Below are positions 2,662-47,214 of a stretch of DNA of 48,428 nt, one piece after another. The stretch is from Dehalococcoidia bacterium (GTDB lineage: Bacteria > Chloroflexota > Dehalococcoidia > GIF9 > AB-539-J10). Under the pieces are notes generated by a model that saw only the letters and a program-made list of their open reading frames with translations, was not told the DNA's origin and did no database searches. The translations under genes and the position numbers were made by a program. The first letter of the stretch is position 1. Every line of letters starts with the position of its first letter. The stretch spans positions 1-48,428 of the forward strand of contig DAOUZA010000003.1 in the NCBI GenBank assembly GCA_030665785.1, read 5' to 3'.

Positions 2662-2833
2662 AACCTCTCTATTACTAACTATCATCGGCTACTAATTGCC
2701 TAAGGCTTTCGAGATACCAATTTAGCCAACCCCCTATGTTATTCCATTTGGGAAGCGGAGTCAATCGGAGCTCAGAAAACACTGTTGTTTTGCTCAACTA
2801 GCTTTGCTATGATGCAATAAGAGGTGATTAATT

Positions 2834-15053: not shown

Positions 15054-17240
15054 ATGAAGAGCAATATTGATGTATTTGAACAAGCAGTAATTCGGGCTGA
15101 GAAGCTAAGTCAAGTAGCAAGGAAAGCTGCTGAAGAATCAGCTAAGGTATCTCAAGATGCTGTAACCCGAGCTGAGGAAATTAGCCAAGCGGCTATAGAG
15201 ACCGTTGAGGAAGCAAAGAGAGCATCCCAAGATGCTATAACCCGAGCTGAGGAAATTAGCCAAGCGGCTATGAAAGCCGCCCAAGCATCAATAAAAGCAT
15301 CTCAGGAAGCAATAAGTAAGACTGAAGCATCAGCAGGGGCATTTGAAGAAATAGTAAGCAAGGTTGAAGCATCAGCCAAACTAGTCAAAGATGCCACTGA
15401 AGCATCAGTAAAAGCATCTCAGGAAAGAATAAGCAAGGCTGAGGAAATAAGCCGTGCCACCATGAAAGCCTCTAAGCAAGCAGAAAAAGCATCCCTGGAA
15501 GCCGTGAATAAGATTGAAGAAGTAAGTGGTACAGCTATAGAAGTCGCCGAGGAGGCACGGAGAACATCACAGGAAGCGGTAACTAAAGCCGAAAAAGTAA
15601 GTCAAGAAGCTATAGAGACTGTTGGAGAATCAATAAAAGCATCACAAGAAGCAATAAGCAAGAGTGAAGCATCGATTAAGCTAGCTACGGAAGCTGCAAA
15701 GGCGTCGCAAAGGACATTTGAGGAAGCAATAAACAGAGCTGACGAAGTAAGTAAAACGGCTATGGAGGCTACAGAAGCAGCATCGAGGGTGTTTCAAGAG
15801 GCCATAGGCAGAGCTGATAAGGTAAGCAAAACAGCCATGGAGACTACCACGGCGACAGCAAGAGCATCACAAAAAGCAATAAGCAAAGCTGAAGAAATAA
15901 GCCAGGTAGCTTGGGGAGCGGCTGAAGAGGCAAAAAGGGTGTCTCACGAAACGATGAATAGAGCCGAGAAGGTAAGCCAAGCAGCCAAGGAAACCGCTGA
16001 GGAAGCAAAGAAACTGTCTCAAGAAGCAACAAGCAAAGCTGAAGAAATAAGCCAGGTAGCTTGGGGAGCGGCTGAAGAGGCAAAAAGGGTGTCTCACGAA
16101 ACGATGAGTAGAGCCGAGAAGATGAGCCAAGCAGCTAAGGAAACGTCTGAGGAGGCAAAGAAACTGTCTCAAGAGGCAATAAGCAAAGCTGAGAAGATAA
16201 GCCAAACAGCCACAGAGGCACAGAAAGTATCTCAGGAGACACTAAGCAAGGTTGAACAAATAGGACAAACAGCTACAGAAGCTGCTGGAGAGGCAAGGAG
16301 AGTATCCCAAGAGGCAGAGAACAAAACTGAAGAATTGATTAAATCAGCAAGTAAAGCTGAAGAAGTAAGTAAAACAGCACAGGAAACTGTTGAAACATCT
16401 GCAAAAGCATCTCGGGAAGCGGTGAGTAAAGCTACGAAGGTAAGCAAAGCAGCTATGGAGACTGCTGAAGCATCAGCAAGGGTATTTGAAGAAGCAATGA
16501 GTATGGCTGACAGAGTAAGCAAAGAAGCCAAGGAGATTTCTGAAGCATCAGCAAGAGCAGCTCAGGAGGCAACAGGAAGAGCCGAGGAAATAAGTCAATC
16601 AGCCAAAGAATCTGCCGAAGAGGCAAAGCGAGCATCCTTAGAATCAGCAAACAAAGTTAAGCAAATAAGTCAAGCTATCATAAAGAGCAATGATGAGGCG
16701 AAGAAAGCATCTCAAGAAGCAGTAAGCGAAGCAGAGGAAATAGGCAAGATAGCTAGAGAAAAAGCTGATGAAGCGAAAAAAGCCTCTCAGGAAGCTATAA
16801 ATAAGGCTGGAAAAATAAGCGAAACGGCTAAAGAAGCTGTTGGAAAATCTACACAAGCAGCCAGGGAAGCTGTAATCGCCTCGGTAAAGGCATTCGAGGA
16901 GACAATCAACAGAGCGGAGGAAATAAGCAAATCAGCCAAGAGAGCTGCGATGGCATCAATGCAAATATTTGAGGAGGCAATAAGTAAAGTCGCTGAAGAA
17001 AGCGAGCGAGCTGAAGGGATTGCCGAGTTGCCATCAAAGATGTTTGAGGAAGCGATAAGCGAGGTTGAAATCAGCGAGGAAGAAGAGGAGAAGAAGCCAG
17101 TGAAGCCTAGCAAGGAAATCGAAACGCGTTTGAACCTCCTGGCTAAAATGTATGCTTCAAATAAAGATAAGTATGTTGAGGAAGTTGAAGAAACCGAGGA
17201 GGAAACCCTCGAAGCAAATGATGGGATAGAGGAGGATTAG
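15054..17240 (+). CDS. Uncharacterised 728-aa A/E/K/S-rich repetitive helical (coiled-coil-like) protein with 25-aa repeats and an acidic tail
   Basis: Recurring unit SQEAISKAEEISQAAxExAEEAKKA; no Cys; no Pro until about residue 660; no TM or signal peptide. Confidence 0.8.
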   Translation: MKSNIDVFEQAVIRAEKLSQVARKAAEESAKVSQDAVTRAEEISQAAIETVEEAKRASQDAITRAEEISQAAMKAAQASIKASQEAISKTEASAGAFEEIVSKVEASAKLVKDATEASVKASQERISKAEEISRATMKASKQAEKASLEAVNKIEEVSGTAIEVAEEARRTSQEAVTKAEKVSQEAIETVGESIKASQEAISKSEASIKLATEAAKASQRTFEEAINRADEVSKTAMEATEAASRVFQEAIGRADKVSKTAMETTTATARASQKAISKAEEISQVAWGAAEEAKRVSHETMNRAEKVSQAAKETAEEAKKLSQEATSKAEEISQVAWGAAEEAKRVSHETMSRAEKMSQAAKETSEEAKKLSQEAISKAEKISQTATEAQKVSQETLSKVEQIGQTATEAAGEARRVSQEAENKTEELIKSASKAEEVSKTAQETVETSAKASREAVSKATKVSKAAMETAEASARVFEEAMSMADRVSKEAKEISEASARAAQEATGRAEEISQSAKESAEEAKRASLESANKVKQISQAIIKSNDEAKKASQEAVSEAEEIGKIAREKADEAKKASQEAINKAGKISETAKEAVGKSTQAAREAVIASVKAFEETINRAEEISKSAKRAAMASMQIFEEAISKVAEESERAEGIAELPSKMFEEAISEVEISEEEEEKKPVKPSKEIETRLNLLAKMYASNKDKYVEEVEETEEETLEANDGIEED
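15881..16190 (+). repeat. 150-bp near-perfect tandem duplication inside the 728-aa gene
   Basis: AAGCAAAGCTGAAGAAATAAGCCAGGTAGCTTGGGGAGCG... starts at 15881 and 16031; AAGCAAAGCTGA recurs at 16181. Confidence 0.92.
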
Positions 17241-17911: not shown

Positions 17912-19084
17912 TTATAGTAACACAGGGATGTCATTAAAGATTTCTTCGAGTTCTCTGCCACCATATTGTAATCCCTGTCTTGCCTTTATAGCGGAGATTA
18001 AGTCAATCGCTTTGGTGAAGTAATTCGTCACTTTCCCTAGAGCGCCAAAATCAGACAGAATTACAGCAACGTCTACCGATTTTTTTTGCCTAGGATAATC
18101 CCCGCTTCGTATTAAAGCATTCGGGGCTACAGCCTTTAAATTGTCTCCAAGATCCTTGATTATGTCCATATTCATCTCACCAGGCGGGGCAGAAATAAGG
18201 TAGAGAGCTCTTCTCGCACCTTTAGGATCGCATGTGAGTGATAACTCAGTTAAGGCTTTATCCATGGCATGGGCTCCCTTATTGGTCTCAGTTACCTTGT
18301 CCCTGAAATGATTTTTCTTTCCAAGGGGGAGTTTCCTCTGCCGAATTAACGATTTACCTGTGCCAATCGCTGTCCATCCTGCCAAGGTCTGTATTATATC
18401 TCCGGCATCAAGCACCCTTGACCCGATATACTTTGGCTTTGTCTCCTCACCGGCGCAAAGTAGATTGTAAAAAGGTTCAACCAGGCGAGCATTGATCCTC
18501 GCCAGATTTTCTGCAATGGAAGAATCTTTCTTGATATACCTCTGGTTATCAACAAGAATTATAGCGTCGGCTACTAAGTATACCGATTTAAGGCAAATAG
18601 CAGTGTTGTAAATAGTTCTGCTTTCAGTTGTTTCTTCCTGGCGAAAAGGGAGAGCGATGAGGTTATAAACCGGCTTACCAACATAGCGCTCTTTTAACAG
18701 TCGGGTTAATACCCCTATTGAGCCTGACCCTGTACCACCAGCAGCACCAGCAATCAATAAGAAACCATCTGCCTCAGGGAATTGCTCTGCTGTTCTTATG
18801 GCATCTATAATCTTGTCGCCATCTTCCCTTGCTATTTCAGCACCGAGTTCACTTATCTTACCTACTCCGTGTCCTTCGGTCTTCCGCCCCCCAACAACAA
18901 TCCTGTGTCTATAATCAGGTTTGATGTTGGATAGTCCGCTCAAATCAGCAATATCAGTATTGACAGCGAAGGCACCGGCAATCACATTAAGCCCTCGCAC
19001 AACCTGCGCTCTCTTATTAAGCCAGGCAAACCTATCTACAATTCTCCCACCACATTGACCTAAACCTATAACTATTAACTTCAT
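17912..19084 (-). CDS. Tubulin/FtsZ superfamily GTPase, CetZ-like
   Basis: GLGQCGGRI, AVNTD..DL.GL, GHGVG...ELGAEIA, GAAGGTGSG signature, VDN, AGE...VLDAGDIIQTLAG, RSGDYP. Confidence 0.88.
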   Translation of the reverse strand: MKLIVIGLGQCGGRIVDRFAWLNKRAQVVRGLNVIAGAFAVNTDIADLSGLSNIKPDYRHRIVVGGRKTEGHGVGKISELGAEIAREDGDKIIDAIRTAEQFPEADGFLLIAGAAGGTGSGSIGVLTRLLKERYVGKPVYNLIALPFRQEETTESRTIYNTAICLKSVYLVADAIILVDNQRYIKKDSSIAENLARINARLVEPFYNLLCAGEETKPKYIGSRVLDAGDIIQTLAGWTAIGTGKSLIRQRKLPLGKKNHFRDKVTETNKGAHAMDKALTELSLTCDPKGARRALYLISAPPGEMNMDIIKDLGDNLKAVAPNALIRSGDYPRQKKSVDVAVILSDFGALGKVTNYFTKAIDLISAIKARQGLQYGGRELEEIFNDIPVLL

Positions 19085-23672: not shown

Positions 23673-23786
23673 CTAACCTTGCCTTTGGTTATGCCTTGGG
23701 TTCACACAAATAACCCTAACTCTGCCCTTACGCCGAACAATTTTACATTTGCTACAACGAGGCTTAACTGAAGAACTTACTTTCAT
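23673..23786 (-). CDS. rpmJ: 50S ribosomal protein L36 (Zn-ribbon type); not in ORF track
   Basis: Manual translation [37 protein letters not shown]. Confidence 0.97.
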
Positions 23787-26802: not shown

Positions 26803-27246
26803 TTAAATCTCTTCTACCTTGCCACCGGCAGATAATATCTTCTTTCGCGCAGCAGTAGACAGTTTGTCAGTTTTCACAGACAACGAGTAATGGACGTCAC
26901 CAGTACCCAAAATCTTGACAGGATTCTTTAATGACTCAATTAACCCTGCTTCGAAGAGCTTCTCTCTGGTTACCTCGGTATTAGGAGGAAATATGCTAAG
27001 CTTGCCTACATTCACAATACTATATTTCTTTTTAAAGGCATTAGTAAAACCTCTTTTCCCAGGTAATCGCTTTATAAGAGGCAATTGCCCACCTTCAAAG
27101 CCAAGACGTACCTTACCTCCAGAGCGCGATTTTTGTCCCTTGCACCCCCTTCCCGAATAGGTGCCATGCCCACTACTGTTCCCTCTCCCAACACGCTTCT
27201 TCTTGTGCCTAGCACCTACAGGGGGTCTTAATTCATCCTGTCTCAT
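26803..27246 (-). CDS. rplO: 50S ribosomal protein L15
   Basis: RVGRG, KGQKSRSG, GFEGGQLPL, KILGTG. Confidence 0.97.
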   Translation of the reverse strand: MRQDELRPPVGARHKKKRVGRGNSSGHGTYSGRGCKGQKSRSGGKVRLGFEGGQLPLIKRLPGKRGFTNAFKKKYSIVNVGKLSIFPPNTEVTREKLFEAGLIESLKNPVKILGTGDVHYSLSVKTDKLSTAARKKILSAGGKVEEI

Positions 27247-27751
27247 CTTGCTTGTCCTTCATAGCCATTTCTGGCTTCCTCAAGTTTGCTAAGGCAAGTA
27301 TTGTTGCCTTAGCTATATTAACTCGATTAGAACTACCCAGGGATTTGCTAAGGATGTCCTTTATCCCTGCCAATTCAAGTACTGCCTTAACCGTGTTGCT
27401 AGCAATCAAGCCTGCCCCAGGTGCTGCTGGCTTGAGTAAAATCTTAGAGGCACCGAACTTGGCTAAAACTTCGTGGGGAATGGTATTATCCGCGAGTGGA
27501 ACTTCAATCAATTCCTTTTGTGCTGTTGTGCTAGCTTTGCGAATCGCTTCGGGAACACCAGTGGCTTTACTTAACCCTACTCCAACATGCCCGTTGTTAT
27601 CACCAACTACCATTAGAGCTCTGAAACGAAGACGCCGACCACCTTTAACTACCTTGCTTATACGGTCAATAGCTAGGAGCTTCTCATTAATCTCTAACCC
27701 TGAAGGGTCAATTTTAGCTTTTAGACCAATTACTTTAGTAACTGCTTTCAT
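27233..27751 (-). CDS. rpsE: 30S ribosomal protein S5
   Basis: KVVKGGR, VVGD..GHVG, AGIKDIL.KSLGS. Confidence 0.97.
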   Translation of the reverse strand: MKAVTKVIGLKAKIDPSGLEINEKLLAIDRISKVVKGGRRLRFRALMVVGDNNGHVGVGLSKATGVPEAIRKASTTAQKELIEVPLADNTIPHEVLAKFGASKILLKPAAPGAGLIASNTVKAVLELAGIKDILSKSLGSSNRVNIAKATILALANLRKPEMAMKDKQDETG

Positions 27752-27762
27752 TCTTAGTAACC

Positions 27763-28128
27763 TTAAATTTTCAATCCTGCTTGCCTGGCAGCTTCACCTA
27801 AAGCTTTCACTCGCCCATGATATTTGTATCCACCTCTATCGAAAACTACCTGCCTAATATCTTTGTCTATTGCTTTTTGAGCAACCAATGAACCTACAAA
27901 CTCAGCTCTCCTTATTTTTGCCTCCTGTCCAAGTTTCTCCCTTGCAATAGGTTCAAGAGTACTTGCCGAAGCCAATGTCTTTCCTGAAGAATCATCTATG
28001 ATTTGCGCATATATATGATTCAAACTTCGGAAAACGGATAATCTAGGGCAAGATGCTGTACCTGATATTTTCCTCCTTACTCGCTTATGCCGTTCTCGCC
28101 GAAGCGCTCTTGAATTTGTTTTAAGCAT
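27763..28128 (-). CDS. rplR: 50S ribosomal protein L18
   Basis: [22 protein letters not shown]. Confidence 0.98.
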
Positions 28129-28136
28129 TATATTTA

Positions 28137-28688
28137 CTATCCTCCGGCTACTGCCTTACCAGCTTTGCCGGGCTTGAGCCGAATTTGCTCCCCACCATAT
28201 CTAATCCCCTTTCCTTTATAGCAATCTGCAGGGCGTATAGCTCTGATTTCAGCAGCTACTCTCCCCACAACTTGCTTATCAATACCCTTAATGTAAATAC
28301 GGTTTGTTCCCTCAATGGAAATGGAAACATTGGAGGGAATTTGGTACTCTACAGGATGACTATACCCGATTTGAAATGATAATTTATCACCTTTTTCCTG
28401 CACCCTGTAACCCACTCCCTTTATCTCTAGAACTTTCTCAAAACCTTTACTAACTCCTTCAACCATATTAGCAAGTAAACTACGAGTAAGCCCATGTAAA
28501 GAGCGGTGCATTTTATCGTCCCTCCTCCGGGACACTACTATATTCCCTTCCTCTAATTTAATAGACATGTCTGGGTGAAAACAACGATAAATTTCTCCCT
28601 TGCTCCCTTTTACCGTCACCTTATTCCCTTCAATATTCACCTGTGCATCTTCAGGCACCGGGATAGGAAATAATCCAATGCGAGACAT
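28137..28688 (-). CDS. rplF: 50S ribosomal protein L6
   Basis: [23 protein letters not shown]. Confidence 0.97.
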
Positions 28689-28705
28689 ATTACTTAACCT
28701 CCAGA

Positions 28706-29104
28706 CTACCACACATAAAGTAAAAGCTCACCCCCGAGACCAAGCTGCCATGCTTTCTGACCGGTCATAATGCCTTTAGAGGTAGACAAAATAGCAATAC
28801 CCAGTCCTCCGTAAACACGAGGAATTTCCCCCTTACCAACGTAGACTCTCAAGCCAGGTTTGCTAACCTTTTCCAATCCCAGCAGTGCTGGTTGTTCCTC
28901 TATATACTTGAGATATACTTTTATCGTTGACTGTGGCTTACCTTTAATTACTTCATAATCCTGAATAAACCCCTCGTTTTTAAAAATTTTAGCTATGGAT
29001 AATTTTATTTTAGAGGAGGGTATGAGGGCATTATCATGCCTCACCATGATGGCGTTACGGATTCGAGTCAACATATCAGCGATTGGGTCAGTGCCTACCA
29101 TCAT
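28706..29104 (-). CDS. rpsH: 30S ribosomal protein S8
   Basis: [26 protein letters not shown]. Confidence 0.98.
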
Positions 29105-29114
29105 AATATAATCC

Positions 29115-29300
29115 TCACCAACTCGACTTTCTCACTCCAGGAATCTGCCCAGTTGCGGCAAGCTCCCGAAAACAGATGCGGCACAAGCCAAATTTGCGCA
29201 TATAAGCACGCGGGCGTCCACATAATTTGCAACGATTACGTTGCTGAACCCTGTATTTCGGGGAGCGCTTTGACTTTACGATCTTAGCTACCTTAGCCAT
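29115..29300 (-). CDS. rpsZ: 30S ribosomal protein S14, Zn-binding short type
   Basis: 61 aa, RCKLCGRPR...LCRICFR...KSSW. Confidence 0.97.
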
Positions 29301-29844
29301 TGCTTTTACCCTTAAAAGGCATGCCCAAGAATTCTAATAGGCTCATTGATTCTTCGCTAGTCTTGGCAGTAGTCACTATAGTTACCTGGAGTCCACGAAT
29401 CTTATCTACCTTATCATATTCAATCTCGGGAAAAACTATTTGCTCCCGCATACCTAAATTATAATTGCCATGACTATCAAAAGAGGTTCTCAATACCCCT
29501 TGAAAATCACGAAAACGTGGCAAGGTTATATTAATTAATTTATCCAGAAAATCGTACATTCGTATGCCACGCAGTGTGACCATCATCCCAATAGGCATGC
29601 CGGTTCTCAACTTAAATGAGGCGATAGATTTCTTTGCCTGTGTAAGTACAGGCTTTTGCCCCGCGATTGTTGTTAAATCCTTTTCAGCCGATTCAAGTGC
29701 CTTGGGATTTTGTATCGCTTCTCCCAAACCGATGCTCAAAACAATTTTCTCTAACCTAGGCACTTGCATTATGTTGTCGTAACTAAATTTCTCTTTAAGC
29801 CGAGGAACCACTTCTTTTAGGTATTTCTCCTTTAGTCGAGCCAT
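29293..29844 (-). CDS. rplE: 50S ribosomal protein L5
   Basis: GQKP, VTLRG..MY.FL, PRFRDF.G, FPEI. Confidence 0.98.
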
Positions 29845-29851
29845 GCTAGTA

Positions 29852-30163
29852 TTAATCAATCACCTCGTTACAAGAACGGCAAATTCGCACTTTTCTACCA
29901 TCATCTAGAAAACGAAACCCAACTCGTGCCGGTTTACCACATTTATCACAAAGTAGCATTACATTAGAACAATGGAGCGGAGCTTCAAGCTCAATAATGC
30001 CAGCCTGTCGGGCTGCTCCTCGAGTCCTAGAGTGACGTTTAATCAGATTAACTCCTTCCGCTATAACTTTATTCTCTTTAGGAAGAACTTTACGAACTTT
30101 CCCCTTCTTGCCCTTCTCTTTGCCAGCAATAACAACAATAGTATCGTTTTTCCTTATCTTCAT
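29852..30163 (-). CDS. rplX: 50S ribosomal protein L24
   Basis: [23 protein letters not shown]. Confidence 0.98.
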
Positions 30164-30164
30164 C

Positions 30165-30533
30165 TTATACGACCTCCGGAGCCAACGAAATTATTTTAGT
30201 AAAATTCTTACCTCGAAGCTCTCTAGCCACAGGACCGAAGATACGGCTTCCTTTAGGATTATTCTTATCGCCAAGAATTACTGCAGCATTCTCATCAAAT
30301 TTAATATAAGAGCCATCTGTGCGGCGGTAAGGTTTGGCCACACGGACAACCACAGCTCGTACTATCTCACCTTGTTTCACCATACTATGCGGTATAGACC
30401 GTTTTACCGAGGCTACAATAATATCGCCAACATGAGCGTACCTTCTTTTAGTGCCACCAGGCACGTTGATACACATGATTTGCTTAGCTCCTGTATTATC
30501 AGCTACTTTAACTCTGGTGTAGGATTGAATCAT
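30165..30533 (-). CDS. rplN: 50S ribosomal protein L14
   Basis: [30 protein letters not shown]. Confidence 0.98.
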
Positions 30534-30804
30534 TCTCCTGTGCTCCTGTTGGTCTCGATGTGAGTTCCACTACTCGCCATCTTTTTTCCTTAGATAGAGG
30601 GCGCATCTCCACAATCTTTACCTTGTCACCAACCTTACAAGCATTATTTTCGTCATGAGCTTTATATTTTTTGATATGCCTCATCAATTTTTTATACAAT
30701 GGATGTGTTCTTACCGTCTCTACAGCTACCACAACAGTTTTATCCATTTTGTCACTCACCACTACCCCAGTTCTAACCTTTCTTTTTCTTAAATGACTCA
30801 TCAT
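30508..30804 (-). CDS. rpsQ: 30S ribosomal protein S17
   Basis: [31 protein letters not shown]. Confidence 0.98.
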
Positions 30805-30995
30805 ATGCCAAGTTCTCTTTCTCGAAGAACAGTCTTAAGTCTGCTAATCTCCTTCTTAACTCGCGGTAACTCACGGTGATTGCCAAGTTGCCGAGTAGCT
30901 AAACGAAAACGAAGATTAAAGAGCTCTTCATGAGCCTCTTCCAATTGCTTTAACAGCTCTTCATCGCTAAAAGCACGAATTTCACTGACCTTCAA
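30801..30995 (-). CDS. rpmC: 50S ribosomal protein L29
   Basis: ELFNLRF..AT.QL, position in the S10 operon. Confidence 0.96.
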
Positions 30996-31410
30996 TCTTC
31001 ATTTCTCCTTTTGTAATAAAGCTAGTAGCAATGGGAAGCTTGTAAGAAGCAAAATGCATTGCTTCACGAGCTAAGCTTTCACTTATGCCACCCATTTCAA
31101 AAATAACTCTGCCTCTTTTAACCACAGCTACCCAATGATCGGGAGCACCTTTGCCTCCCCCCATTCTTGTCTCTGCCGGCTTCTTGGTTACCACCTTATC
31201 CGGAAAAACGCGTAGCCATAGTTTGCCACCACGCCGTACATAGCGTACCAAAACACGTCGGGCAGCCTCAATCTGCCTTGCTGTTAGCCAAACAGATTCT
31301 TCAGCCATCAATCCAAAATCACCGAAGACCACAGTATTACCACTAGTGGCTTCCCCTTTTAAGTGACCTCTATGGACTTTACGATATTTCACCCGTTTCG
31401 GTTGTAGCAC
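30982..31410 (-). CDS. rplP: 50S ribosomal protein L16
   Basis: [25 protein letters not shown]. Confidence 0.98.
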
Positions 31411-32050
31411 TTTCCTTCATTACCTCCTTAGGAATATCGCCTCTATAGATCCACACCTTAACCCCGATACGTCCCATTGCCGTATGAGCTTCGACAAAAC
31501 CATAATCTATATCAGCAGATAACTTATGCAATGGCATTTGCCCTTGATGCAAAGTCTGAAAACGAGCGATCTCAGCTCCACCAAGCCTGCCACTACACTT
31601 TATCTTTATCCCCTTTGCACCTGCTTCTAAAGTTCTAAAAGCTGCCTGGCTCATTACTCGGCGAAATGGAATTCTGTTTTCGATTCGTTCAGCTATGTTT
31701 TGAGCTACTGGGTGAGCTTCAAGCTCTGGACGCTCAACCTCTCGAATAGTTAACCTGATTTTCCCATCGCTAATTTTCTCCAACTCCTTTTTTAATATTT
31801 CTATATTTTGCCCCCCTCTCCCAATAAGAATGCCAGGATGAACGGAATAAATGGTTAAACCTATCTCGTCTCCAAGCCGCTCGGTTTCCACGCGAGAAAC
31901 ACCACTAACACGGCATCTTTGTGCTATAGCCTTGCGTAATTTTAGGTCCTCCAGAAGGAAGCGGCTATAGTCCTTTTCAGCATACCATTTAGCATCCCAG
32001 TCCTGACTAATACCCAACCTAAAACCGCGTGGGTGAACTTTATGCCCCAA
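31379..32050 (-). CDS. rpsC: 30S ribosomal protein S3
   Basis: [30 protein letters not shown]. Confidence 0.98.
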
Positions 32051-32052
32051 GG

Positions 32053-32391
32053 TTAACTTCCCTCCTCCATAACAAACACTGTAATATGGCTAGCCCGTTT
32101 TAAAATGGGGCTTACTCGCCCTCTTGCCTGTGGGCGAAACCTCTTCAAAGTATGCCCTTGATCACAAAGGATTTCACTAATCCTAAGGTCAGCAGGAGAC
32201 ACTTGCAAATTATTTTCAGCATTAGCTGCTGCTGATTTAATCACTTTGGCCACAGCCTTAGCTGCCGGAGTAGGTAGAAAACTAAGGATTGTTAATGCCT
32301 CATCAATTTTTCTACCCCTAACTATATCAGCCACTAAACGAACTTTTTTAGGTGAGATACCAACGTCTTTAGCTACAGCTTTTACCTTCAT
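32053..32391 (-). CDS. rplV: 50S ribosomal protein L22
   Basis: SPKKVRLVAD, SAAANAENN, ARGR, SHIT. Confidence 0.98.
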   Translation of the reverse strand: MKVKAVAKDVGISPKKVRLVADIVRGRKIDEALTILSFLPTPAAKAVAKVIKSAAANAENNLQVSPADLRISEILCDQGHTLKRFRPQARGRVSPILKRASHITVFVMEEGS

Positions 32392-32398
32392 TCACTCA

Positions 32399-32683
32399 TT
32401 ACCTCGCCTGTACAGTGACCTTAGCCTTGCTAATATGCCCTCTAAATGTTTTGGTAGGAGCAAATTCTGCCAACTTACGCCCAACCATGCCTTCAGTGAT
32501 AAAAATAGGTACGTGTCTCCTCCCGTTATGAACAGCAATAGTGTGCCCTATCATTTGGGGAAGGATAGTAGAAGCACGGGACCAGGTCTTTATTACCGTC
32601 TTCTCCCCCGAATTATTGAGCAACTCTATTTTCTTAAGTAATTTAGCATCGCAATAGGGACCTTTTTTACGTGACCTCGACAT
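32399..32683 (-). CDS. rpsS: 30S ribosomal protein S19
   Basis: KKGP, KTWSR.STI.P, VHNGR, EFAPT. Confidence 0.98.
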
Positions 32684-32684
32684 T

Positions 32685-33506
32685 TCACTTCCTTCGCTTA
32701 ATAATCATTTTATCTGATTTCTTATTACGGCGTGTCTTTCGCCCCAGTGCCGGCTTCCCCCAAGGTGTTTTAGGAGGCATCCCTCGAGGACTTCTACCCT
32801 CACCTCCTCCATGAGGATGATCTCTCGGGGTCATAGCAGAACCACGAACTGTAGGACGGAACCCCAACCACCTTCGACATCCTGCCTTACCCAGCACCAA
32901 ATTCTCATGTTCAACGTTACCTAGTTGTCCAATAGTAGCCCAACAGTTATGGTGAAACTTCCGTAATTCACCCGAGGGCAACTGAAGCGAGACATATTTA
33001 CCCTCCTTACTCAATATTTGAGCAGCAGTCCCAGCGCTGTGAACAAGCTGACCACCCCTGCCAGGCTCAATTTCAATATTATGGATTAACGTGCCCGTTG
33101 GAATCAAACCGATAGGTAAGGCATTTCCTATTCTTATGTCAACTTGCTCTCCCGCCTCCACAACATCCCCCACCTGAAGACCTAAAGGAGCAAGGACATA
33201 ACGCTTTTCTCCATCAGCATAATAAATTAATGCGATCCGAGTTGAACGATTAGGATCATATTCAATGGCAGCCACTTTGCCAGGAACGCCAATTTTATCC
33301 CTCTTAAAATCGATGATTCTAAGCTTGCGTTTGGCCCCACCACCACGGTGACGTACTGTTATTACACCGCGACTATTGCGTCCCCCTTTCTTCCGCAATG
33401 GCAGGAGCAATGATTTTTCAGGAACTGCCTTAGTTATTTCCTCAAAACTAGCTTTAACCATCCCTCTCCTACTAGGAGAAGTTGGCTTGTAACTCTTTAA
33501 TGCCAC
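32685..33506 (-). CDS. rplB: 50S ribosomal protein L2
   Basis: [26 protein letters not shown]. Confidence 0.99.
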
Positions 33507-33526
33507 AAATTACCTCCAATTTATAT

Positions 33527-33622
33527 CTATGGATGTTTCCTCTGCCACCGAGTTTTCTTCATAAGCTTCCGATGATGATGCTTGGACATCTTCTTTTTTC
33601 TCCACTTTATTACTGACCCCAT
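33527..33622 (-). CDS. 31-aa basic protein of the bS22 / mS38 (AURKAIP1/COX24-domain) family; not in ORF track
   Basis: Manual translation MGSVIKWRKKKMSKHHHRKLMKKTRWQRKHP; matches the actinobacterial bS22 pattern as recalled ([23 protein letters not shown].QR); AAGG upstream; fills the rplW-rplB gap. Confidence 0.85.
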   Translation of the reverse strand: MGSVIKWRKKKMSKHHHRKLMKKTRWQRKHP

Positions 33623-33634
33623 GGTTAACCTTTT

Positions 33635-33919
33635 TTAAACACCTTCAAAGAAGCTGATCTTATCACCTGGTTCCAGAGTAACCACTGCCTTTTTCCATGG
33701 TGAACTTGTTACTTCTCTCCTACCCATTCTCTTCGTCTTTCCAGGAGTGGTTATCACGTTTACTTTAGATACCTTTACTTTAAATGCCAGCTCAATTGCC
33801 TGCTTAATTTGAGCCTTATTAGTTTCTCTAGCTACCTCAAAGACATACTTACTTCCCTCTTGAAGCAATGTAGCTTTCTCCGAAATTATGGGACGTCGTA
33901 AAACTTCATAGGGATGCAT
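33635..33919 (-). CDS. rplW: 50S ribosomal protein L23
   Basis: PIISEKA, NK.QIK.AIE..F.VKV, WKKAVVTL. Confidence 0.98.
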   Translation of the reverse strand: MHPYEVLRRPIISEKATLLQEGSKYVFEVARETNKAQIKQAIELAFKVKVSKVNVITTPGKTKRMGRREVTSSPWKKAVVTLEPGDKISFFEGV

Positions 33920-34553
33920 GCTTAATCGCCTTTCTTCCCCAAGTTTGCTCTATTTTACGTATTGCATCAATAGTGATCATCAGTTTTTGATGAGAAAGTA
34001 AATCAGCCACATTGATCAAAGCCGAAGGTAAAACATCCACGGTAATTAAATTGTTAGCTGACTTAACTACATTTGGAGTAGCATCAGGAGTAACAATTAA
34101 TACTGAAGATTCGATGCCAAGTGCTGATAAGATGTTAATCATCTCCTTTGTTCCTGGCTTATCAAAAGTACACTCCTCAACCACTTTTATATTACCCTCT
34201 CTAACTTTAGCAGAAAGAACGCACTTTAAAGCTAGACGCCTCATTTTCTTAGGCATAGCCTGGTGATACGTACGAGGGTGGGGACCAAAAGCTACTCCCC
34301 CCCCTCTAAGAACCGGTGACCCTACAGCTCCCCTCCTTGCTCGTCCGGTATGTTTTTGCAAATAAACTTTCCTCGTGCTCCCACGGACTTCTCCCCTTGT
34401 TTTCGTGGACGCAGTACCTTGACGTTTATTAGCTAATTGCCTCACTAATGCTTGATGAACCACAGCATCATTAAAAGGAAGACCGAAGATATCATCGCTA
34501 ATCTCTAGTTGTGTAACAACTTCACCGGATAGATTATGAACTGGGACTTGCAT
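33906..34553 (-). CDS. rplD: 50S ribosomal protein L4
   Basis: RQGTASTKTRGEV, QK.TGRAR, GGGVAFGP.PR. Confidence 0.98.
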   Translation of the reverse strand: MQVPVHNLSGEVVTQLEISDDIFGLPFNDAVVHQALVRQLANKRQGTASTKTRGEVRGSTRKVYLQKHTGRARRGAVGSPVLRGGGVAFGPHPRTYHQAMPKKMRRLALKCVLSAKVREGNIKVVEECTFDKPGTKEMINILSALGIESSVLIVTPDATPNVVKSANNLITVDVLPSALINVADLLSHQKLMITIDAIRKIEQTWGRKAIKHASL

Positions 34554-35174
34554 TTATACTTCCTCCACTTTCTCAATAAACAATAATCCCTTATTAGCTC
34601 CGGGTACGGCACCCTTTAATAAAAGCAGGCTGCGATTCGAATCAGCTTCGATGACCTCTACATTATGCACGGTTACTTTCCTCGCCCCCATATGTCCAGC
34701 CATACGCTTTCCTTTAAACACCCTGCCTGGATAGGTGGTAGCACCGATTGACCCTGGAGCACGATGACGGTCAGATTGCCCATGCGTTTTTGGTCCTCCG
34801 GCAAAATGATGGCGTTTTACTACACCAGCAAAGCCCTTTCCCTTAGAGAAACCACTTACATTTACTAAGTCACCTTTTCCCAAAAATCCGACATCCATTT
34901 GCTGACCACGCTGATATGAGCTAACATCGTCGGTCTTAAACTCATGAAGATAACGAACTTCCTCCATATCTTTGAGGTGTCCAGATTGAGGCGAGTTAAG
35001 ATGGCTTACCTTCCCAAAACCAAGCTGGATAGCATTATATCCATCCTTGCTTTCACTCTTCACCTGGGTGACAAAACAAGGACCAGCTTCAATAGCAGTT
35101 ACTGCTGCCGCTTCGCCATTTTCCAGGAAAACTTGTGTCATACCTATCTTCTTGCCAATAATGCCTTGAACCAT
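34554..35174 (-). CDS. rplC: 50S ribosomal protein L3
   Basis: GKKIGMTQ, KGKGFAG, HRAPGSIG, GKRMAGHMG. Confidence 0.98.
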   Translation of the reverse strand: MVQGIIGKKIGMTQVFLENGEAAAVTAIEAGPCFVTQVKSESKDGYNAIQLGFGKVSHLNSPQSGHLKDMEEVRYLHEFKTDDVSSYQRGQQMDVGFLGKGDLVNVSGFSKGKGFAGVVKRHHFAGGPKTHGQSDRHRAPGSIGATTYPGRVFKGKRMAGHMGARKVTVHNVEVIEADSNRSLLLLKGAVPGANKGLLFIEKVEEV

Positions 35175-35181
35175 CGCTTTA

Positions 35182-35490
35182 TCACAATTTGATATCTACT
35201 TGCACTCCAGAAGGTAAGTTAAGTTGACTTAGAGCATCTATGGTTTTAGCGCTAGGTTGCAAGATGTCTATTAACCGCTTATGTGTGCGAATTTCAAACT
35301 GTTCTCTAGAATCCTTATCAATATTCGGGGAACGGATAACGCAAAACTTCTCTATTTTTGTAGGCAAGGGTATAGGACCAACAACTATAGCTCCAGTGCG
35401 TTCCACAGTATCCACTATCTGTCTTACTGACTGATCAACCAGTCTATGATCAAAACCTTTTATTTTAACCCGGATTTTTTGATTGCTCAT
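35182..35490 (-). CDS. rpsJ: 30S ribosomal protein S10
   Basis: [25 protein letters not shown]. Confidence 0.98.
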
Positions 35491-37572
35491 CTATCTCACC
35501 ACCATCTCAGCCATGTACTGCTTGGCTAAATCATCAGGTAATTCCTGATAACGACAAAATTCCATAGTGCAATTTGCCCTTCCCTGGCTGAGGGATCTCA
35601 AATCTCCAGCGAAACCAAAGATTTCCGATAGAGGAACGGAACAACGAATAATAGAAAAGGTCTCGTGGGTTTCAATGTTTTCAATATGGGCTCTTCTCGA
35701 ATTTAAATCACCTAAAATTTCCCCTAGAAATTGCTCCGGAGTGACTATTCCTACCTTCATAATTGGTTCGAGCAGGATGGGCTTAGCCTTAGGCATACCG
35801 TTCTTCACCGCAATGGACGCTGCTATGTTAAACGCTAAATCAGAAGAATCGACTTCATGGAAACTACCATCGTATAGAGTTACTTTAATGTCCACCGTAG
35901 GATATCCAGATACTCCGCTTTGCAAAGCTGCTCGAACACCTGCTTCTATAGCAGAAATGAATTCCTTAGGTATGACTCCACTGCGGATTTGATTAAAAAA
36001 GGCAAAACCACTGCCTCTCTCACCAGGCTCCAGCCTAAGCCAAACATGTCCATACTGTCCTTTACCTCCAGACTGACGAATAAATTTCCCTTCAGATTCT
36101 ACTGGGATGGTTATTGTTTCCTTATAAGCGACTTGCGGCTTACCAACATTTACCTTTATCCCAAATTCACGCGAAGCACGCTCTGTAAGAACCTCAAGAT
36201 GAAGCTCACCCATGCCTGAAATAATAGTTTGACCAGTCTCTGAATTCTGGTAACACTTGAAAGTTGGGTCTTCATCCACAAGTTTATTTAAAACATTATG
36301 TAATTTATCCTGGTCAGCCTTACTCTTAGGTTCAATTGCCATGGAAAGTACTGGCTCAGGAAAACGTATAGACTCAAGGAGCAAAGGAGAGGCAACATTG
36401 CAAATCGTGTCACCGGTAAATGTCTTTCTAAGCCCAACAACAGCTACAATGGCGCCTGTGTCAGCGTCATCTACTTCCTCCCGGCGATTAGCATGCATAA
36501 GATATAGCTTTCCCATCCGTTCCCTTTCATTCCTCGTGGAGTTAAGAATCTGGGCCCCGGCTTTTACTTTTCCTGAATACACACGGAGATAACTCAATCT
36601 GCCCATAAATGGGTCAGAAACTGTTTTAAAAACCAACGCTGCAAGAGCATCTTCATCATTGGGCCGACAAATAATTTCCTTCTCGCCATTAAGTCCCATT
36701 GCAGAGATAGGAGGAATATCCAGAGGCGAAGGAAGATAATCAACAACGGCATCGAGCAGAGGACGTATCCCTTTACCCCTCAGAGCGCTACCACAAAGAA
36801 CGGGAACTGCTTGATTGGCTATGGTTAACTTTCTTATAGCAACTTTTAGTAATGAGACTGGAATATCTTGACCTTCGAGATACATTTGCATAATCTGATC
36901 ATCACTTTCAGCTAACCTCTCAATTAATTTTTGACGGTACTCAGTCGCCATAGCCCTGTCATTCTCAGGAATAGGTTCCTTTACAGGCATTAAATCAGGA
37001 TCATCAGGGAAAGTAATAGCTTTATTCTCCACAAGGTCAATAACTCCTCGGAAAAGATTTTCAACCCCTAGAGGGAGCTGTATAGGTAACGGTTTAGCTT
37101 GAAGCCGCTCTTCCACCATTCTTATAGCGTGATAAAAGTCAGCACCGACTCTGTCCATCTTGTTAAGAAAACAGAGCCTAGCTACATTATATTTATCTGC
37201 CTGGCGCCACACCGTCTCCGATTGAGCTTCGACGCCCGCTAAAGCATCGAGTATTACGATGCCACCATCTAACACACGGAGACTGCGTTCTACTTCAGCG
37301 GTGAAATCTACATGCCCAGGAGTATCAATGATGTTGATGCGGTGCTCACGCCAGTAGCAGGTAGTAGCCGCGGAAGTAATAGTAATGCCACGCTCACGTT
37401 CCTGCTGCATCCAATCCATGGTCGCAGTGCCTTCATCTACCTCGCCAATCTTGTAGGTGTACCCTGTATGGTAGAGCATCCTCTCCGTAGCAGTAGTTTT
37501 ACCAGCATCTATATGGGCAATAATGCCCATATTACGTATCTTTTCTAAAGGGAAAGTTCGTGACACGCCCAC
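35491..37572 (-). CDS. fusA: Elongation factor G
   Basis: AHIDAGKTT, ERGITI, DTPGHVDF, NKMD, GMGELHL, QSGGKGQYGH; GTG 37566 is a plausible alternative start. Confidence 0.98.
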   Translation of the reverse strand: MGVSRTFPLEKIRNMGIIAHIDAGKTTATERMLYHTGYTYKIGEVDEGTATMDWMQQERERGITITSAATTCYWREHRINIIDTPGHVDFTAEVERSLRVLDGGIVILDALAGVEAQSETVWRQADKYNVARLCFLNKMDRVGADFYHAIRMVEERLQAKPLPIQLPLGVENLFRGVIDLVENKAITFPDDPDLMPVKEPIPENDRAMATEYRQKLIERLAESDDQIMQMYLEGQDIPVSLLKVAIRKLTIANQAVPVLCGSALRGKGIRPLLDAVVDYLPSPLDIPPISAMGLNGEKEIICRPNDEDALAALVFKTVSDPFMGRLSYLRVYSGKVKAGAQILNSTRNERERMGKLYLMHANRREEVDDADTGAIVAVVGLRKTFTGDTICNVASPLLLESIRFPEPVLSMAIEPKSKADQDKLHNVLNKLVDEDPTFKCYQNSETGQTIISGMGELHLEVLTERASREFGIKVNVGKPQVAYKETITIPVESEGKFIRQSGGKGQYGHVWLRLEPGERGSGFAFFNQIRSGVIPKEFISAIEAGVRAALQSGVSGYPTVDIKVTLYDGSFHEVDSSDLAFNIAASIAVKNGMPKAKPILLEPIMKVGIVTPEQFLGEILGDLNSRRAHIENIETHETFSIIRCSVPLSEIFGFAGDLRSLSQGRANCTMEFCRYQELPDDLAKQYMAEMVVR

Positions 37573-37575
37573 TCC

Positions 37576-38049
37576 TCACCAACGATAATGTACGAAGGCT
37601 CTATTAGCTTCAGCCATCCGATGAACATCGCTGCGCTTTTTAATTGCCGCTCCTTGACCATGAATAGCATCAGTCAACTCAGCAGCTAATTTTTCTGCCA
37701 TTGAATTACCATGGCGTGCTCGCGCTGCGCCAATTAACCATCTCATTGCGATAGAACGCCCCCGATTTTCTTCTACTTCCACAGGAACCTGGTATGTAGC
37801 CCCACCAATGCGTCGCGACTTAACCATAAGAGCTGGTGTAACATTCTTAACCGCCTGTTCCAGAACTTCTACAGGGCCACTATCTGCTCGTTCACTGGTA
37901 AGCATCAAAGCATCATAAACAACACGCTCAGCAGTGGCTTTCTGCCCACGCAACATGAGTTTATTAATAAATTTAGACATAATAACGCTTCCATACTTAG
38001 CGTCCGGAGGAATTTCTCTCTTTACTACCTTGTTACCTTTTCTCGGCAT
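37576..38049 (-). CDS. rpsG: 30S ribosomal protein S7
   Basis: SRRIGGATYQVP, HRMAEANRAF.HYRW. Confidence 0.98.
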   Translation of the reverse strand: MPRKGNKVVKREIPPDAKYGSVIMSKFINKLMLRGQKATAERVVYDALMLTSERADSGPVEVLEQAVKNVTPALMVKSRRIGGATYQVPVEVEENRGRSIAMRWLIGAARARHGNSMAEKLAAELTDAIHGQGAAIKKRSDVHRMAEANRAFVHYRW

Positions 38050-38057
38050 GTGCTACC

Positions 38058-38477
38058 TCACTCGCCTGCAGTCCGTTTAGTACCATATCGACTACGACTC
38101 TGTTTCCGATTAGCCACCCCTTCGGTATCTAGGGTACCACGAACAATGTGGTAGCCAATTCCGGGAACATCTTTGACTCTACCACCACGAATTAAAACCA
38201 CCGAATGTTCTTGTAAATTATGCCCTTCGCCAGGAATATAAGCGGTCACTTCCATCCCGTTAGTTAGCCTTACGCGAGCAACCTTACGTAATGCCGAATT
38301 CGGTTTCTTAGGAGTAACAGCCTTAACCTGGATACAAACGCCTCGCTTCTGAGGTGAACCTTCAGTCCAGCGAGTTCTGCCTTTTATGGCATTATAACTT
38401 AAATGCAACGCTGGAACCTTGGTTCGCTTATTAGGTTTCTTGCGTCCCTTGCGAACAAGCTGATTAATCGTTGGCAC
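38058..38477 (-). CDS. rpsL: 30S ribosomal protein S12
   Basis: [36 protein letters not shown]. Confidence 0.99.
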
Positions 38478-44649: not shown

Positions 44650-45516
44650 ATGTCAAATAACATCAAAGTAGCTTCTCAAGATACCAGGGGTACTAATGTC
44701 TTCGACTTCTCTGTGCCTGAGCTTACGGAGATGACAAAAAAGCTACGACGCCATATAATCACTATGATATCTACAGCAGGCAGTGGACATCCTGGAGGCT
44801 CTTTATCAGCCGTAGATATCATCACTGCACTTTATTTCAAAATTATGCACCATGACCCACATAACCCCAGATGGAAAGACCGTGACAGATTTATATTAAG
44901 CAAAGGGCATGCTGCTCCAGCCTTATATGCTGTTTTAGCTGAAAGTGGCTATTTCCCTGTAGAAGAATTGACCACGTTGAGAAAACTAGATAGCCGCCTT
45001 CAAGGACACACTGATAGAAACCTTACTCCCGGGGTGGAAATGTCAGCAGGCTCTTTAGGTCAAGGTTTATCCTTCGGCATCGGTATTGCACTGGCTGCTA
45101 AGCTTGATCACCATGATTATCAAACCTACGTTCTCCTCAGCGATGGTGAATGTGAAGAAGGCCAAACTTGGGAGGCAGCTTTATCAGCCGCGCACTTTAA
45201 ATTGGATAACTTGAATGCAATTATTGACCGCAATCAACTGCAACTTAGTGGCTGGACTCAAAATATTATGGACATTGAGCCGTTAAATAAAAAATGGCAA
45301 GCTTTCGGTTGGCACACCATTGAGATAGATGGCCATAACTTCGACCAAATTTTAACTGCTTTCGAGGAAGCTAAAGCAACTAAAGGTAGGCCAACTGTTA
45401 TTATTGCACATACCACTAAAGGTAAGGGAGTTAGCTTCATGGAGAATAATGTTGAATTTCACGGCAAGGCGCCTACATTAGAGGAAGCTAAAAGAGCATT
45501 AAAGGAACTGGAATAA
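44650..45516 (+). CDS. Transketolase N-terminal (TPP-binding) subunit
   Basis: GSGHPGGSLS, DRFILSKGHA, GSLGQGLS, SDGECEEG..WEA, HGKAP. Confidence 0.93.
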   Translation: MSNNIKVASQDTRGTNVFDFSVPELTEMTKKLRRHIITMISTAGSGHPGGSLSAVDIITALYFKIMHHDPHNPRWKDRDRFILSKGHAAPALYAVLAESGYFPVEELTTLRKLDSRLQGHTDRNLTPGVEMSAGSLGQGLSFGIGIALAAKLDHHDYQTYVLLSDGECEEGQTWEAALSAAHFKLDNLNAIIDRNQLQLSGWTQNIMDIEPLNKKWQAFGWHTIEIDGHNFDQILTAFEEAKATKGRPTVIIAHTTKGKGVSFMENNVEFHGKAPTLEEAKRALKELE

Positions 45517-45518
45517 TA

Positions 45519-46457
45519 ATGACTGTGGAAGCATCTACCCGCGAAGCCTATGGCAGAACGTTAATTGAACTAGGCAAACAAAACAAAGACATTATTGTTT
45601 TGGATGCTGATTTATCATTGTCAACGATGACTCACTTTTTTGCACAAGAGTTTCCCGAGCGCTTCTTCGACTGTGGTTTAGAGGAACAAAACATGATAGG
45701 CATAGCCGCTGGTTTGGCTGCCTCAGGGAAAACCGTTTTTGCCACTTCTTTTGCTGTTTTTGCTTCATGCCGATGTTTTGACCAGTTGAGGATGTGTATC
45801 TCCCAACCAAAGTTAAATGTCAAGATGGTAGCCACCCATGGTGGCATTAGTGTTGGTGAAGATGGCACTTCTCATCATGCCATTGAGGATTTATCCTTAT
45901 ATTGCTCCCTCCCCAGCTTTACCGTTATTGTCCCCGCTGATGCCATAGAAACCACTGAGGCAGTAAAAGCAGCTGCAGCCACCTACGGACCTTTTTACAT
46001 TAGATTAAGCCGTCCTAAAACACCGCTCATCTACCGCAAAGGCCACCATTTCACGGTGGGTAAGTCAATAACCATGAAACAGGGTAAAGACATCACCATT
46101 ATAGCCATGGGCATTATGGTAGCTAAAGCTTTAGAGGCAGCAAAGATGTTGGCAGACCAGGGAATAGGCTGTCGCGTAATTAATATGCACACTCTCAACC
46201 CCCTGGATGAGGAAGCTATAATTAAAGCAGCCTCAGAGACAAAGGCCATCGTCGTTGCTGAAGAACATTTGGCTCATGGCGGCTTAGGTAGCCGAGTTGC
46301 CCAAATAGTAGCTAGAGAAAAACCAGTGCCTATGTCCTTCGTCAATCTTAAAGACCGCTATTCTTTATCGGGGAAACCCGGGGAGCTACTTCAAAGAGCG
46401 GGGCTGACCGCGGAAGGTATCGAAGAAGCAGTAAAGCAAGTTATTCAAAAGAAATAA
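45519..46457 (+). CDS. Transketolase C-terminal subunit
   Basis: DADL, EQNMIGIAAGLA, GEDGTSHHAIED, EEH...GGLGS. Confidence 0.93.
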   Translation: MTVEASTREAYGRTLIELGKQNKDIIVLDADLSLSTMTHFFAQEFPERFFDCGLEEQNMIGIAAGLAASGKTVFATSFAVFASCRCFDQLRMCISQPKLNVKMVATHGGISVGEDGTSHHAIEDLSLYCSLPSFTVIVPADAIETTEAVKAAAATYGPFYIRLSRPKTPLIYRKGHHFTVGKSITMKQGKDITIIAMGIMVAKALEAAKMLADQGIGCRVINMHTLNPLDEEAIIKAASETKAIVVAEEHLAHGGLGSRVAQIVAREKPVPMSFVNLKDRYSLSGKPGELLQRAGLTAEGIEEAVKQVIQKK

Positions 46458-46515: not shown

Positions 46516-47214
46516 CTAATCTTCCAGGATAACCCTGGCATCCAAAGCTATAACCTTATCCTTATAGGCGAATATGGGGTTAAGGTCAAGCTCTTTAATT
46601 TCAGGGGTTTGTTCTACAAACTGTGATACTCTGACTATTAAGTCTTCAAGAGCAGCGATGTTAGCTGGTTCTTGTCCCCGGTAACCTTCCAATAAGGGGT
46701 ATCTCTTTATCTCCCTAATCATCTCCGCAGCATCTTCCCGAGTAATCGGAACTATTCTGAAGGAAACATCCTTTAGTAACTCTACCAGAATGCCACCGAG
46801 CCCAAACATAATCACTGGCCCAAATTGAGGGTCCTTGCTCATGCCGACAATTACCTCGGTGCCCGGACGAGCCATTTTCTGCACGGTTAAACCATGAATG
46901 ATAGCACCGGGATATTTATGCTTTATGGATGACATGATTTCAGCATATGCCCTGCCTGCTTGGGTAGCGCTAGCAATGTCCAATTTAACACCACCGGAGT
47001 CACTCTTATGCACAATATCCGGCGACGCAATTTTAAGCACTACCGGGAACCCCAACTCTTTGCTTACAGAAATAGTTTCTTTCCTGGTTTTAACCAATCT
47101 CGTTTCAATAACCGGTATGCCAGCTTGCTTGAGCAATTCTTTAGATTCAAATTCCGTTAATACTGTCCTTCTCTCCGTCCTCGCCTTATCCAAAATTGTG
47201 GTTCCCGCTGTCAT
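46516..47214 (-). CDS. acdB: Acyl/acetate-CoA ligase (ADP-forming) beta subunit (ATP-grasp)
   Basis: GFPVVLKI.SPDI.HKSD.GGV, DPQFGPVIMFGLGG, ELDLNP, DARV. Confidence 0.9.
   Translation of the reverse strand: MTAGTTILDKARTERRTVLTEFESKELLKQAGIPVIETRLVKTRKETISVSKELGFPVVLKIASPDIVHKSDSGGVKLDIASATQAGRAYAEIMSSIKHKYPGAIIHGLTVQKMARPGTEVIVGMSKDPQFGPVIMFGLGGILVELLKDVSFRIVPITREDAAEMIREIKRYPLLEGYRGQEPANIAALEDLIVRVSQFVEQTPEIKELDLNPIFAYKDKVIALDARVILED

Follow-up and report, generated by a model that had tools for sequence, protein, structure and literature searches.

The small ribosomal protein bS22 is treated as a mycobacterial or actinobacterial protein in the accessible text of six papers (PMC10618245, PMC7797042, PMC10081302, PMC10085706, PMC6133939, PMC12123416), which also report counterparts in Flavobacterium johnsoniae, Porphyromonas gingivalis and Borrelia. 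The RefSeq name '30S ribosomal protein bS22' is used in Streptomyces as well, according to the available part of a further paper (PMC13118837). In the excerpts available from four of the papers, bS22 is located in a pocket at h27, h44 and h45 and is assigned a bridge role (PMC10618245, PMC7797042, PMC10085706, PMC12123416). The actinobacterial proteins represented by M. smegmatis MSMEG_0945 (5O5J and 5O61) and by the Cutibacterium acnes protein (8CRX) are 33 aa in length, and their genes are named only by locus tag in the accessible sections of the papers. The bS22 proteins of Bacteroidota and Borrelia (Fjoh_1533 and bb0822) and eL41 are short basic helices that are reported, in the available text, to occupy the same 16S pocket (PMC10618245, PMC7797042, PMC12123416). 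Mitochondrial mS38 (AURKAIP1; Cox24 in yeast) carries a homologous basic domain at its C-terminus, but this nuclear-encoded mitoribosomal protein is 111–200 aa in length and has long N-terminal parts.

The presence of the family in Chloroflexota is already known, being recorded in databases. With a natural 43-aa homologue (P0001) as the query, 37 candidates were obtained, of which 35 had E up to 1e-3, and each of these 35 proteins contained PF08213. NCBI names were attached to 11 of the 35, nine from MAG records labelled Chloroflexi or Dehalococcoidia, which are named 'aurora kinase A-interacting protein' or 'AURKAIP1/COX24 domain-containing protein', and two from records labelled Actinomycetota. 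Chloroflexota homologues of 30–31 aa have been called and named in NCBI, JGI and ENA records, and those under the two names given above (such as P0009, P0012, P0021 and P0030) share this length, PF08213 and the sequence TRWQR with the protein described below. A full-text search of a limited literature yielded no publication that deals with bS22 of Chloroflexota or Nitrospirota or that connects bS22 with the S10 operon, and within the literature searched the S10-operon position of bS22 appears to be unreported.

Here we describe a 31-codon ORF located between rplW and rplB in a 48,428-nucleotide stretch of DNA, the whole of which is referred to as the window. Its product shares NF047430, PF08213, the N-terminal sequence MGSVIK and the pattern of basic residues with actinobacterial bS22, and it is of about the same length (31 versus 33 aa). 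It differs from the latter in having His instead of the Lys found at position 16 in M. smegmatis, in its Chloroflexota-type C-terminus (TRWQRKHP) and in the position of its gene inside the S10 operon. The gene is a further member of the bS22 family, and what is new is its gene context. The first-pass annotation of this DNA had regarded the gene as hidden and too short for gene callers; this view goes too far, because homologues of the same size have already been called and named and an NCBI equivalog model for the family exists.

Family identity and operon position of the 31-codon ORF

Few gene orders are as well conserved among prokaryotes as that of the S10 operon. NCBIfam assignments in the window gave the order rpsL, rpsG, fusA, rpsJ, rplC, rplD, rplW, the 31-codon ORF, rplB, rpsS, rplV, rpsC, rplP, rpmC and rpsQ, and equivalog models showed that the run continues past rpsQ through the spc and alpha clusters. 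As defined by these assignments and by junction distances, the str-S10-spc run from rpsL to rplO, in which the ORF is embedded, occupies positions 26803..38477 of the minus strand. The ORF itself lies at 33527..33622 on the minus strand, with an ATG start codon and a TAG stop codon, as seen both in the ORF listing and in the sequence. Its upstream neighbour is rplW (uL23; 33635..33919, minus strand; NF004363, 113.1 bits against a cutoff of 81), and its downstream neighbour is rplB (uL2; 32685..33506, minus strand; TIGR01171, 412.8 bits against a cutoff of 174.5). The description in the first-pass annotation of a 31-aa ORF that nearly fills the 128-bp gap between these two genes was borne out, with an identical translation and with both neighbours confirmed by equivalog models.

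The ORF shares its strand with both neighbours and is separated from them by short gaps only. The 12 nt that separate its ATG from the end of rplW (33623..33634, minus strand) contain a weak Shine–Dalgarno-like AAGG, and the 20-nt spacer between its stop codon and the GTG start codon of rplB (33507..33526, minus strand), which was aligned with those of two related loci (L001 and L002, see below), contains a GGAGG Shine–Dalgarno motif. No promoter-like or terminator-like site was found within the rplW–rplB spacer (33507..33634). The ORF thus has the strand and the short junctions, free of predicted internal signals, that would be expected of a co-transcribed member of the S10 operon. Furthermore, the stretch from rpsL to secY comprises 23 genes besides the ORF, and the 22 junctions in which the ORF has no part range from -32 to +11 nt; therefore, a non-coding rplW–rplB spacer of 128 nt would be an outlier.

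The 31-aa protein matched the NCBIfam equivalog '30S ribosomal protein bS22' (NF047430) with 62.1 bits against a cutoff of 34 (E 3.8e-17), over positions 1–30 of the 31-position model, and the Pfam family COX24_C (PF08213) with 33.7 bits (cutoff 23). At E up to 10, these were the only families matched in NCBIfam and Pfam. These two scores uphold the assignment to the bS22/mS38 family made in the first-pass annotation. The predicted protein has a pI of 12.0 and contains 13 Lys and Arg residues, 4 His residues and no Asp or Glu; it is a stand-alone and extremely basic protein that falls within the size range of about 30–33 aa. Lys and Arg make up 42% of its residues, which is below the 55–65% quoted for characterised bS22 proteins in the accessible text of PMC10085706. 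When the 31-aa sequence was searched against 1.8 billion proteins, eight matches were obtained at E up to 1e-3, a number that reflects the limit set on the score by the length of the query.

Among PDB chains searched with phmmer, the bS22 chains of Mycobacterium (5O5J, 5O61, 6DZI and others) and C. acnes (8CRX) were matched at E 4e-6 to 4e-5. In the alignment, which starts from residue 1 and includes MGSVIK, 19 of the 29–30 aligned positions were counted as identical to those of actinobacterial bS22. The mS38 chains aligned only weakly to the single sequence (E 0.012 and above). With a profile of 30 homologues (alignment A3), actinobacterial bS22 chains were matched at about 1e-13 and mS38/AURKAIP1/Cox24 chains at 8e-6 to 4e-4; all of the 30 aligned homologues, including those encoded by L001 and L002, matched NF047430. 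Neither the single sequence nor the 30-member profile detected chains of Bacteroidota or Borrelia bS22 (such as Fjoh_1533 and bb0822) or of eL41 at E up to 1 in the PDB, indicating that the ORF belongs to the actinobacterial/mS38 sequence family and not to the types that are similar in structure only. Proteins of the mS38 type are longer than 100 aa, with an N-terminal extension before COX24_C, whereas the ORF in the window is bounded at 31 aa and corresponds to the bare domain. Its homology is therefore to the domain only, which argues for a bacterial bS22 and not for mS38. Judged by sequence, 33527..33622 is a bS22 gene by family membership.

Conservation of the frame at the rplW–rplB junction

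A set of bS22 loci was collected by scanning genome contigs with the peptide pattern KKM[SRA]K[HK][KH][HY] in combination with an alignment (A1). At least 600 stretches matched, of which at least 105 encode a relative, and the best 80 of at least 105 were retained as loci; part of the conservation seen at residues 10–17 of these proteins stems from the pattern used to find them. The loci were then searched by tblastn with eight S10-operon proteins of the window. In 2 of the 80 loci (the best 80 of at least 105), the bS22 ORF was located between rplW and rplB, with flanking genes confirmed by NCBIfam. One of these, L001, is from a record labelled as a Dehalococcoidia MAG, and the other, L002, is from a record labelled as a Chloroflexia MAG. 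The arrangement has thus been seen in three genomes only, namely those of the window, L001 and L002, all of which share the order rplD-rplW-bS22-rplB-rpsS.

The frames of L001 and L002 consist of 31 codons, with a TTG start codon and, as in the window, a TAG stop codon. The spacers on the two sides are 16–17 and 16–20 nt in length, respectively, and the total rplW–rplB distances are 133 and 128 nt. At the position of the AAGG of the window, L001 has GGGGA and L002 has GGGAG. Conservation of the frame in relatives, which the first-pass annotation had called for, was thus found at the very same junction. In the three pairwise comparisons among the window, L001 and L002 (Nei–Gojobori), pS in the ORF frame was 0.74–0.98, which is near saturation, and pN was 0.08–0.13. 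In the two other frames, pS was at most 0.18 and pN was 0.24–0.34. The bS22 frame is under purifying selection. Because the ribosomal proteins of the three operons are mutually only 55–86% identical, the placement of bS22 in the S10 operon is old and has been maintained.

The length of the ORF alone is not beyond chance, since closed ORFs of 31 aa or more, on either strand, occurred in 2,168 of 20,000 shuffles of the 128-nt spacer (about 11%). This frequency, together with the biased composition of the protein, is what speaks for a chance ORF, or for a false HMM match of a low-complexity Lys/Arg-rich peptide, in a spacer that is non-coding or encodes a structured RNA. However, the HMM match (E 3.8e-17) covers nearly the entire model and extends over the N-terminal MGSVIK, which is not repetitive, and the length, frame and stop codon of the ORF have been kept in two distant relatives, with pS far exceeding pN in this frame only. 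The spacer also folds no better than its shuffles (z = -0.24), and no Rfam family was detected in it at the gathering score or even at E up to 1, which disfavours an RNA element. The sole Rfam match in 33300..33850 was located inside rplW on the other strand (33701..33824; E 0.4, 14.3 bits against a gathering score of 50). The HMM match, the conservation of the frame under purifying selection in two syntenic relatives and the outlying spacer length are beyond chance, and the reading as a chance ORF or RNA element, to which we attach almost no probability, is effectively refuted.

Two other ORFs that overlap the spacer were considered. One, on the same strand in another frame (33510..33605), would encode an acidic protein of 31 aa and was rejected, as it is interrupted by stop codons in both L001 and L002. 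The other, on the plus strand (33482..33616), found no support.

Locations of bS22 genes in other genomes

The flanks available for the survey extended up to 3 kb per side; they were shorter on at least one side in 27 loci, and every locus had at least 1.2 kb on one side. Within these limits, 78 of the 80 loci (the best 80 of at least 105) contain no S10-operon gene in their flanks, in agreement with the statement in the first-pass annotation that bS22 genes normally lie elsewhere than in the S10 operon. S10 genes were absent from the vicinity of bS22 in all Actinomycetota- or Acidimicrobiia-labelled loci among the same best 80 of at least 105. For the neighbour survey, 72 ORFs from 28 loci, which are a subset of 117 ORFs from 32 loci, were compared with Pfam. 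Apart from one locus (L014), the neighbours scanned elsewhere are non-ribosomal. PAC2-family or GHMP-kinase genes lie beside bS22 in loci of the Acidimicrobiia type. In two Dehalococcoidia-labelled loci (L008 and L010), bS22 is located between a nitroreductase gene and holB, the latter confirmed by NCBIfam, and three other Chloroflexota-labelled loci (L003 to L005) have other metabolic neighbours, outside ribosomal operons. Where the context is visible, Chloroflexota bS22 genes other than those of L001 and L002 thus lie outside the S10 operon (L003 to L005, L008, L010 and L014), unlike that of the window. The exception with respect to ribosomal neighbours, L014, carries an Anaerolineae label; in this locus, bS22 is located directly behind infC-rpmI-rplT (1902..3096), which represents a second linkage to a translation operon in Chloroflexota, with the rpmI assignment at 45.5 bits being under its cutoff of 51.2.

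Among the best 80 of at least 105 loci, a start codon is present at aligned residue 1 in every case (74 ATG, 4 TTG and 2 GTG), and 75 loci read as proteins of 29–31 aa; in the other five, the extension overran the stop codon. A GGAGG-like motif is present in most of the 21 upstream regions inspected. The C-terminal sequence TRWQR was found only in Chloroflexota-labelled loci (L001–L005, L008, L010 and L014; among the best 80 of at least 105), supporting a Chloroflexota origin of the window and a relocation of the gene within the phylum. The labels of the two syntenic loci, L001 and L002, are likewise consistent with Chloroflexota, the phylum to which the first-pass annotation had pointed. The three S10-linked copies all have this Chloroflexota-type C-terminus and are 74–77% identical to the non-operon Chloroflexota copies, which fits orthology with relocation. 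The survey also indicates that the family is common in Chloroflexota- and Nitrospirota-labelled genomes, beyond the mycobacterial and actinobacterial scope of the literature.

In five loci (L006, L007, L009, L012 and L013), bS22 (near position 3001) lies just downstream of a gene for a CoA-enzyme activase of ~950 aa (BcrAD_BadFG/DUF2229). Four of these loci are labelled Nitrospirota, Nitrospiraceae or Thermodesulfovibrionales, and L012 is labelled only 'Bacterium'.

Proposed role and origin of the S10-linked gene

Judged by the layout, the polycistronic mRNA of the S10 operon most likely includes bS22. The gene would be translated from its own ATG, possibly with coupling to the termination of rplW, and, if so coupled, the protein would be made together with the core ribosomal proteins. 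By homology, the product would be a basic helix of ~4 kDa that inserts into the 16S rRNA pocket which h27, h44 and h45 form close to the decoding centre, and the same helix would also contact 23S rRNA and thereby provide an extra intersubunit bridge; the window itself contains no 16S rRNA gene. The move of the gene into the S10 operon would have taken place in the ancestor shared by a deep clade to which the organisms of the window, L001 and L002 belong; a relocation is proposed because Chloroflexota-type bS22 lies elsewhere in other Chloroflexota. Taken as a whole, this reading, namely a functional bS22 gene that is co-transcribed with the S10 operon, acts in the 16S pocket by homology and was relocated into the operon, is in our judgement very probable. 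The statement in the first-pass annotation that the ribosome of this lineage carries bS22 was worded too strongly; expression of the gene and incorporation of its product into the ribosome are what we infer for the organism of the window.

Some features of the window copy are unusual. Codon 16 (33575..33577) specifies His, within a His-His-His run, whereas L001, L002 and most homologues have Lys at this position. Lys16 of M. smegmatis bS22 contacts the h44 backbone and affects aminoglycoside binding, according to the accessible part of PMC10081302. In addition, the weak AAGG in the window and the TTG start codons of L001 and L002 suggest that the output of bS22 from these genes may be low. The same features, His16, the weak Shine–Dalgarno sequence and the TTG starts, would suit a second, specialised paralogue in the S10 operon, with condition-specific or lower output, alongside a housekeeping bS22 gene elsewhere in the genome. 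Five Chloroflexota-labelled loci (L003, L004, L005, L008 and L010) do encode bS22 outside ribosomal operons, and the visible part of the genome is 48 kb. Within this 48-kb window, no second copy of bS22 is present, and the strong selection acting on the S10-operon copy, as well as the C-terminus and the 74–77% identity that the three S10-linked copies share with the non-operon copies, argue against a specialised paralogue, which we consider unlikely. Less likely still, and in our view very improbable, is a peptide of the bS22 family that acts mainly outside the ribosome, in an antimicrobial or regulatory capacity, or an ORF that serves as a translational-coupling 'bridge' and the product of which is irrelevant. 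Synthetic bS22 of C. acnes acted as an inhibitor of both bacterial growth and cell-free translation (PMC10085706), and an M. smegmatis bS22 deletion mutant was viable with an unaffected growth rate (PMC10081302), as described in the available text of these papers, and both observations could point to roles of this kind. Nevertheless, an irrelevant product is countered by purifying selection at the amino-acid level, every characterised member with this HMM signature sits in the 30S pocket, both among the PDB chains matched above and in the accessible text of two papers (PMC10618245, PMC10085706), and the placement in the S10 operon fits a ribosomal role best. A ribosomal bS22 that was moved into the S10 operon hence remains the preferred reading.

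It is possible, though we would put it at somewhat below an even chance, that bS22 entered ribosomal operons of Chloroflexota in at least two independent events, one of which placed it in the S10 operon between the uL23 and uL2 genes (the window, L001 and L002) and the other behind infC-rpmI-rplT (L014). If this is true, bS22 would be a constitutive and stoichiometric core subunit in Chloroflexota and not an accessory one. The S10 gene order would also have been stably changed, and the insertion could be used as a rare-genomic-change marker for the clade. The S10 placement argues that bS22 would be made in step with the core ribosomal proteins in that clade. The finding of bS22 in the S10 operon opens no new mechanism, but it offers a simple synteny marker for one deep Chloroflexota clade and makes the rplW–rplB spacer worth annotating.

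The ribosomal gene run of the window has several other features. The fusA stop codon abuts the rpsJ start codon at 35490/35491 (a gap of 0 nt), with tuf absent between them, and a direct fusA–rpsJ junction without tuf is also present in L001 (about 1047–1075) and L002 (about 1046–1075). Residues 1–136 of the rpsL product (uS12; 38058..38477, minus strand) align to model positions 1–122, which suggests that about 14 residues absent from the family model have been inserted. The rpsE and rplO genes overlap by 14 nt (27233..27246), and rpmD (uL30) is absent from its usual spc-operon place between them. A 37-aa ORF in the infA/rpsM interval (23673..23786, minus strand) was judged to be rpmJ (L36) because of where it lies and because its sequence is rich in Cys and Lys. 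Outside the run, a 390-aa ORF (17912..19084, minus strand) gave a weak, sub-threshold match to FtsZ (56 bits against a cutoff of 295), and for a 728-aa ORF (15054..17240, plus strand) NCBIfam gave no match with E up to 1e-10. Near the two ends of the window, and thus ~44 kb from each other, are ORFs that resemble the alpha and beta parts of ADP-forming acetate--CoA ligase (1195..2685 and 46516..47214, both on the minus strand), and transketolase is split over two adjacent ORFs (44650..45516 and 45519..46457).
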